From a virus (Duplodnaviria; Heunggongvirae; Uroviricota; Caudoviricetes), in IMG/VR virus record IMGVR_UViG_2667527582_000004: a stretch of 13,399 nucleotides of DNA; one strand, written 5' to 3'. Both the position numbers and the translations under genes were made by a program. Of this stretch, positions 8,154 through 8,375 are shown piece by piece. Positions within the stretch are counted from its first letter, which is position 1. Every line of letters begins with the position of its first letter. Under the pieces are notes generated by a model. That model made no database searches, was not told the origin of the DNA, and saw only the letters and a list, made by a program, of their open reading frames with translations.

Positions 8154-8375
8154 CATCTACCCCATCTACCTGAACAAAATAAACGCATATTATTCAACAT
8201 GATAAGTGGGTATAGGGCTAGGTAGAAGGCTAATAAAAGCTCTCTACCTCTTCTACCTGATTTTATCAGTTTCAGGTAGCAGGGTAGACGGCAGGTAGAG
8301 GAGTCAAAAAGCTATCTACCCGCTGAAAGCCGCGCCATTACTGACATGATGAGCATTCGGGTAGATGGGTAGAGG
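8154..8375. repeat. iteron array, probable replication origin of the satellite
   Basis: At least 11 copies of the core TCTACC / GGTAGA in both orientations (for example CATCTACC at 8154-8161 and 8163-8170, GGTAGAAGG at 8221-8229, TCTACC at 8243-8248, 8252-8257 and 8315-8320, GGTAG runs at 8275-8301 and 8360-8375), with AT-rich stretches between them; located directly 3' of the primase-helicase gene. Confidence 0.7.

Follow-up and report, generated by a model that had tools for sequence, protein, structure and literature searches.

A TCTACC iteron array that probably serves as the replication origin of a phage-inducible chromosomal island of the EcCICFT073 type

Our analysis of a 13,399-bp stretch of DNA from the IMG/VR virus record IMGVR_UViG_2667527582_000004 (the window, by which we mean this whole stretch) indicates that an array of short repeats at 8156-8373 is very probably the vegetative replication origin of a phage-inducible chromosomal island (PICI) of the EcCICFT073 type. 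The repeats are copies of the hexamer TCTACC in both orientations, and they lie in the non-coding gap 8140-8487 between a 584-amino-acid gene (6385-8139), which encodes the initiator Pri-Rep, and a small conserved gene (8488-8739). Elements of this kind are already known, as is the island family, of which a near-identical member has been characterised experimentally. In E. coli PICIs the origin lies 3′ of pri-rep and consists of iteron sets on both sides of an AT-rich region (Fillol-Salom 2018, ISME J 12:2114, PMC6092414). The arrangement in the window is the same, with the first iteron (8156) directly behind the stop codon of pri-rep (8139) and short iteron sets on either side of AT-rich spacers (74% and 76% AT; a third spacer is not AT-rich). 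The surroundings are also those of a PICI: int and alpA at the left, genes in one direction, a length of about 11 kb, a cos site and no lysis or tail genes.

The repeat array and its counterpart in EcCICFT073

The strongest evidence comes from the island EcCICFT073 of strain CFT073, which lies between roxA and phoQ at about 27.9-38.9 kb of the extracted locus. Its initiator is identical to the Pri-Rep of the window at 571 of 584 residues (98%), and the same hexamer occurs in 11 copies at 34013-34234, just past the pri-rep stop at 33996, compared with ten copies in the window; their position and pattern of orientation match, and only one stray TCTACC is found elsewhere in that island. Moreover, the published primer for the deletion of pri in CFT073 matches the first two iterons of this locus. 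The gene order is likewise shared, namely int, alpA, small open reading frames, DUF4222, pri-rep, ori, a small open reading frame, ssb, capsid, decoration and cos/terS, and c1499 (capsid) and c1500 (decoration), both named in the original paper, are present in matching order. The two islands differ in their intergenic DNA, which is only about 75% identical, in one copy (at 8209) that is decayed in the window, and in their integration site, a prophage portal gene for the island in the window and the roxA-phoQ interval for EcCICFT073. Since the window holds the same replicon type as EcCICFT073, what has been found for the latter supports an origin here. EcCICFT073's pri-rep-ori segment maintains a temperature-sensitive plasmid at 44 C, versions with a deletion of pri or of ori fail to do so, and deletion of pri-rep lowers the transfer of the island about 100-fold (PMC6092414). 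A preliminary description, made from the sequence of the window alone, had proposed that a phage-inducible island has its iteron origin placed 3′ of its initiator gene, and this proposal is supported by the comparison with a replicating relative that has a 98%-identical initiator and the same hexamer. The experiment it suggested, cloning the array together with its gene and asking for replication, has in effect been carried out with the EcCICFT073 homolog, and the 11 copies in EcCICFT073 show that a related replicating island does carry the iterons.

Counted on both strands, TCTACC occurs in ten exact copies in the window, whereas shuffled sequences contained 3.27 on average and none of 200 shuffles reached ten. 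All ten are confined to the 218 bp of the array, for which simple arithmetic from the shuffle mean gives an expectation of about 0.05. Five copies are on the plus strand (8156, 8165, 8243, 8252 and 8315) and five, read as GGTAGA, on the minus strand (8221, 8283, 8294, 8360 and 8368); the first begins 17 bp past the stop codon of pri-rep. At two sites, GGTATA (8209-8214) and GGTAGC (8275-8280), a single letter departs from the hexamer, and two such matches per 285 bp are at about chance level. We regard the copy at 8209 as a decayed iteron because relatives carry an intact GGTAGA at the aligned position. The one at 8275 is unconserved in relatives and is doubtful as an iteron. The earlier count of at least 11 copies in both orientations is defensible as ten exact copies, five per strand, plus the decayed one, and the limits then given for the array, 8154-8375, agree with the span of the exact copies.

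The array is built from three modules, each of which opens with AAAAGCnnTCTACC, with start-to-start spacings of 87 and 72 bp. They follow one convergent plan, in which forward copies are followed by a spacer and then by reverse copies. Module 1 (8148-8226) has forward copies at 8156 and 8165, a spacer at 8171-8208, the decayed copy at 8209 and a reverse copy at 8221. Module 2 (8235-8299) combines forward copies at 8243 and 8252 with a spacer at 8258-8274, the doubtful copy at 8275 and reverse copies at 8283 and 8294, and module 3 (8307-8373) a single forward copy at 8315 with a spacer at 8321-8359 and reverse copies at 8360 and 8368. The 38-bp spacer of module 1 (74% AT) is the main AT-rich spacer and our candidate for an unwinding element. 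That of module 2 is 76% AT, and that of module 3 (39 bp) is 46% AT and contains an invariant GC-rich block; the idea that the iterons are interspersed with AT-rich DNA thus holds for the first two spacers and fails for the third.

Comparison with related islands revealed that the hexamers are conserved beyond their surroundings. In their intergenic DNA, the window and the islands of CFT073, Nissle, AREA_492 and Shigella share about 75% identity, and the window and a capsid-forming PICI (NZ_OZ547143.1) about 84%, and nine of the ten hexamers are unchanged in position and orientation across the five islands aligned. Invariant columns make up 55 of 60 within the hexamers and 116 of 225 outside them (Fisher p=2e-9), a value that overstates independence because the five sequences represent about three lineages. 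This conservation, shown here, indicates that the hexamers are under purifying selection. The CFT073 lineage has a T-run in place of the iteron at 8221 and an extra forward copy instead. Placement of the first iteron directly after the stop codon is common to the window and five related loci, among them CFT073, AREA_492 and NZ_OZ547143.1. A homologous origin region was found in 414 of 5,426 complete E. coli genomes, and the exact initiator protein is present on at least 1,000 contigs.

The same alignment contains two conserved blocks outside the iterons. One of them, CTGAAAGCCGCGCCATTACTG (8323-8343), lies inside the spacer of module 3 and is unchanged in five of five aligned sequences, with one change in Shigella; the other, CACAAC..AAAACTTTTTAAACGA (8384-8407), lies between the array and the next gene and might be a signal for the translation or transcription of that gene. 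Both blocks could be regulatory, and within the one-directional operon the array separates two gene blocks. The hexamers might accordingly be read as operators, bound by a transcription factor or by an autoregulating Pri-Rep, which control the downstream genes from ssb through the capsid gene to terS instead of forming an origin; iteron-binding initiators in general often autoregulate. We consider this very unlikely, since scans of 7900-8700 found no sigma-70-like promoter and no terminator, since 10-11 copies in convergent pairs around AT-rich spacers are the layout of an origin and not of an operator, and since deletion of the homologous region of CFT073 impairs plasmid maintenance (PMC6092414). 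A secondary regulatory or autoregulatory role of the array beside its function as an origin is possible.

The array region was scanned for DnaA boxes, IHF and Fis sites, GATC and the oriC 13-mer, none of which was found. The absence of DnaA boxes, IHF sites and GATC fits an origin that is independent of the host initiator and served by a self-loading initiator-helicase, as in SaPIs (PMC9371898). The array region matched no RNA family in Rfam, the sole match in the window being a truncated tRNA (2052-2110). Single-stranded DNA of the region folds better than random sequence (z = -2.8 and -3.5); we rejected a structured single-strand element because inverted copies of one hexamer yield such folding as a trivial by-product. 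Runs of G were noticed at the right end of the array, G7 at 8374-8380 and G8 at 8408-8415. The length of the second run varies, with eight G in the window, six in the capsid-forming PICI and five in islands of the CFT073 type, for which slippage or sequencing error is possible. A candidate G-quadruplex formed by GGG tracts at 8359-8380 was dropped, as it is unconserved in the CFT073 lineage.

The initiator and its binding-domain type

Pri-Rep is encoded on the plus strand and was recognised by the Pfam families D5_N, DUF5906 and Pox_D5, the last, which bears on the C-terminal domain, with a score exactly at the cut-off, and by TIGR01613. It consists of three parts. The N-terminal domain (6385-6774, about residues 1-130) has a degenerate, DnaG-like Toprim fold, and is followed by a D5_N/SF3 helicase core (6952-7680, residues 190-432), which is covered by DUF5906 and matches the SaPI5 protein PriRep5 (PDB 7OLA; phmmer E=3.7e-15). 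At the C-terminus is a winged-helix origin-binding domain (7846-8112, residues 488-576), which matches that of the P4 alpha protein (PDB 1KA8; phmmer E=8e-6). Over 434 amino acids, residues 141-573 of Pri-Rep are 40% identical to residues 324-756 of P4 alpha.

Because catalytic Glu, DxD motif and zinc ribbon are all missing from the Toprim-like domain, Pri-Rep is probably an initiator-helicase and not an active primase. The gene directly upstream of the array had been described as a primase-helicase; its position and its helicase and origin-binding domains are supported, while 'primase' claims more than the sequence bears out, and the label 'DNA primase' on this gene should be handled with caution. 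We tentatively take a further step, which at present seems to us nearly as likely to be right as wrong: Pri-Rep would be a primase-dead derivative of the P4 alpha type, TCTACC would mark the origin of a self-loading SF3 helicase that borrows the DnaG of the host, and the three-module array, although crr-like, would be the sole origin. If Pri-Rep is indeed primase-dead, 'pri' is a misnomer throughout a widespread family. The alignment of the N-terminal domain drew on 83 matches among 1.84 billion protein representatives. The best 120 homologous proteins were all about 100% identical and unsuited to multiple alignment, and a search of genome contigs with the initiator yielded three loci, which served for contrast only and are too few for statistics.

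The comparison of relatives links the repeat to the domain that is predicted to bind it. All islands with a 97-100% identical C-terminal domain carry TCTACC. These include the capsid-forming PICI, whose initiator (NZ_OZ547143.1, 6292-8390) is 88% identical overall and 100% identical over the last 102 amino acids; this island also encodes an HK97 capsid, a protease, a portal, an HNH protein and TerS/TerL. Because its initiator is only 88% identical overall yet fully so over the C-terminal 102 residues, the pri-rep/ori replicon seems to be exchanged as a module between PICI types. Serratia aquatilis, Morganella morganii and P4, on the other hand, have a C-terminal domain that is about 30% identical, and there the position and the convergent layout of the array are kept while the repeat is TGTTCAC/TGTTCAT. 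In Serratia aquatilis (initiator 53% identical) all nine copies of TGTTCAC fall within 209 bp past the stop codon, where 0.86 are expected, in Morganella morganii (52% identical) 11 of 14 copies of TGTTCAT lie in the region past the stop codon, and in P4 the crr site with its type-1 repeats is directly 3′ of the alpha gene. Thus, across the loci compared here, the type of iteron is seen to covary with the type of C-terminal binding domain, and the TCTACC array together with this domain type may serve as a simple specificity marker for replicon groups of PICIs and capsid-forming PICIs.

Comparison with P4, SaPI and other origins

The likeness to P4 gives rise to the most serious alternative, according to which the array is an auxiliary cis element like P4 crr, bound by Pri-Rep and either required for replication or stimulating it, with synthesis starting elsewhere, as at the separate ori of P4. 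The helicase and origin-binding domains of the two initiators are homologous, with the 40% identity noted above, and crr occupies the matching position directly 3′ of the alpha gene, where it is made up of direct-repeat modules, each with short type-1 iterons in both orientations. P4 nevertheless differs in several respects. Its iteron is an 8-mer, TGTTCACC in the annotated P4 repeats, whereas that of the window is TCTACC, and its alpha protein has an intact zinc ribbon and Toprim primase (the glutamate of EGYATA, and DxD), which are missing or degenerate in Pri-Rep. Moreover, P4 has a plasmid state with copy control, according to the literature. It speaks against a crr-like site that P4 has two separated cis sites, ori and crr, while the island in the window has one cluster and no other TCTACC, and EcCICFT073 one stray copy only. 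Furthermore, the cloned pri-rep of CFT073 with the region downstream of it sufficed for plasmid maintenance (PMC6092414). We therefore regard a purely auxiliary role of the array as unlikely.

In SaPI origins, 6-12 penta- or hexanucleotide iterons lie directly downstream of rep and enclose an AT-rich centre, with two or more of them, oppositely oriented, on either side (Ubeda et al.; Qiao et al. 2022, PMC9371898), and the SaPI initiator, a helicase that loads itself, carries a C-terminal winged-helix domain (PMC9371898). The array in the window likewise lies directly 3′ of its rep gene, and an AT-rich region within it is flanked on both sides by two or more iterons that point in opposite directions. 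The homology of the helicase core to PriRep5 (7OLA, residues 190-432) is distant and indicates the same superfamily, not the same family. SaPIs also differ in host phylum and iteron sequences, in their AEP-type primase, which is separate or fused, and in having two iteron sets around one AT-rich centre as opposed to the three modules of the window. Classical iteron plasmid origins of the RepA/pi type do not match: they have direct iterons of 17-22 bp and DnaA boxes and depend on DnaA and DnaB/C for loading, whereas the repeats in the window are hexamers in both orientations, in a region where scans found no DnaA box, IHF site or GATC. A more remote analogy is offered by SV40 large T and papillomavirus E1, for which inverted pairs of penta- or hexamers next to AT-rich DNA direct the head-to-head assembly of SF3 hexamers. 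It is an analogy only, and we know of no sequence relationship between their origin-binding domains and that of Pri-Rep.

Several points weigh against an origin at this site. The array 3′ of alpha in P4 is crr, an auxiliary cis element, and the P4 origin proper is 4.5 kb away, so that the position of an array is no proof in itself that synthesis starts there. The third spacer, as described above, is not AT-rich, and the AT-rich ones are only moderately unstable, at about -34 kcal per 30 bp compared with an island mean of -40.5 (standard deviation 3.5). The main spacer is about 1.8 standard deviations below the island mean in duplex stability, and several other sites in the island are less stable; the support from duplex stability for a specific unwinding element is moderate to weak. 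Moreover, the sequences behind the conservation statistic are not independent samples. Finally, the direct evidence for replication comes from the 98%-identical EcCICFT073 homolog.

For an origin of this kind, we envisage the following course of events. Induction of the island by a helper phage would lead to transcription of the rightward operon and to the synthesis of Pri-Rep, whose C-terminal winged-helix domain is predicted to bind the TCTACC hexamers. By analogy with the SaPI/P4 model, opposed hexamers of the SF3 helicase could then form on the convergent iteron sets, at both flanks of the AT-rich spacers, and melt these spacers, the helicase loading itself with no need of DnaA, DnaC or any separate loader. 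The unwound strands would be coated by the single-strand DNA-binding protein (SSB) of the island and probably primed by host DnaG, which we propose because the Toprim-like domain of Pri-Rep has lost its catalytic residues.

Island context and integration site

All genes between 2318 and 12224 are on the plus strand, and their organisation is that of a Gram-negative PICI as judged from gene content and order. A tyrosine integrase with an arm-binding domain (2318-3559) is directly followed by AlpA (3561-3818). Between AlpA and Pri-Rep are genes for a Bro-N protein and then an Icd-like protein, several small open reading frames and DUF4222. The small conserved gene downstream of the array (8488-8739) belongs to phrog_1231 and is always found between the origin and ssb. 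The latter (8736-9185; Pfam SSB, E=6e-16) encodes a likely replication accessory and precedes the genes for the major capsid protein (lambda-E-type) and the decoration protein (D-type). Behind the decoration gene and ahead of the cos/terS region is a second gene of the AlpA family (10805-11188), and a Nu1-like small terminase gene (terS) is located at 11378-11860.

As the island encodes this small terminase and an integrase, the hexamers could also be thought of as packaging or recombination sites bound by one of these proteins, which we deem extremely improbable. An exact 12-nt lambda cosN, GGGCGGCGACCT, is present 2.9 kb away from the array at 11245-11256, about 120 bp upstream of terS, and marks a lambda-type cos site. 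Repeats of a different motif, TGTGTATTGCAA, are found at both ends of the island, three upstream of int (2246-2301) and two near the right end (12940-12963), and these are the likely, putative arm-type binding sites of the integrase. The non-coding right arm also contains three tandem 54-bp repeats (12475-12620) with no match in Rfam, each with a short palindrome of its own (CCTGCAATGCAGG, CCCCCATTGGGGG and CCTCAATTTGAGG) after a conserved CTAAsCyATTGATT box.

The window consists of three contigs joined by runs of ten N (2108-2117 and 13266-13275), and asnB (1-1665) and the truncated tRNA are for this reason not true neighbours of the island; the last 124 bp form the third contig. The middle contig (2118-13265) shows island homology throughout and is 99.94% identical to the complete genome NZ_AP045067. 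In this genome the island sits within a lambdoid prophage, whose portal gene it divides (halves at 2189-3022 and 13933-14715 of the extracted locus), and positions 13040-13265 of the window correspond to the 3′ half of a portal gene. The related island of AREA_492 divides the gene for the large terminase in a different prophage (175-1167 and 13024-13989 of the extracted locus). PICIs of the EcCICFT073 type can thus use morphogenesis genes of lambdoid prophages, potential helpers, for their integration. The 2018 paper states that prophages never use the attachment sites of PICIs (PMC6092414). A search of a phage collection gave no match. A plasmid state of the island is unsupported, the sole match in a plasmid search, CP088587.1, being composed of chromosomal genes and a capsid-forming PICI. 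This 32.5-kb record is described as a circular plasmid, contains clcB, mlc, pntAB and ydgH next to the PICI, and is probably a mislabelled chromosomal fragment.

Overall, our analysis adds no conceptual novelty, and its value for annotation is that a 285-bp stretch hitherto taken as 'intergenic' can be labelled rep_origin. The island appears to carry a replicon of the EcCICFT073 kind that is intact and maintained by selection, and would thus be likely to amplify after induction by a helper phage and to be transferred at high frequency.
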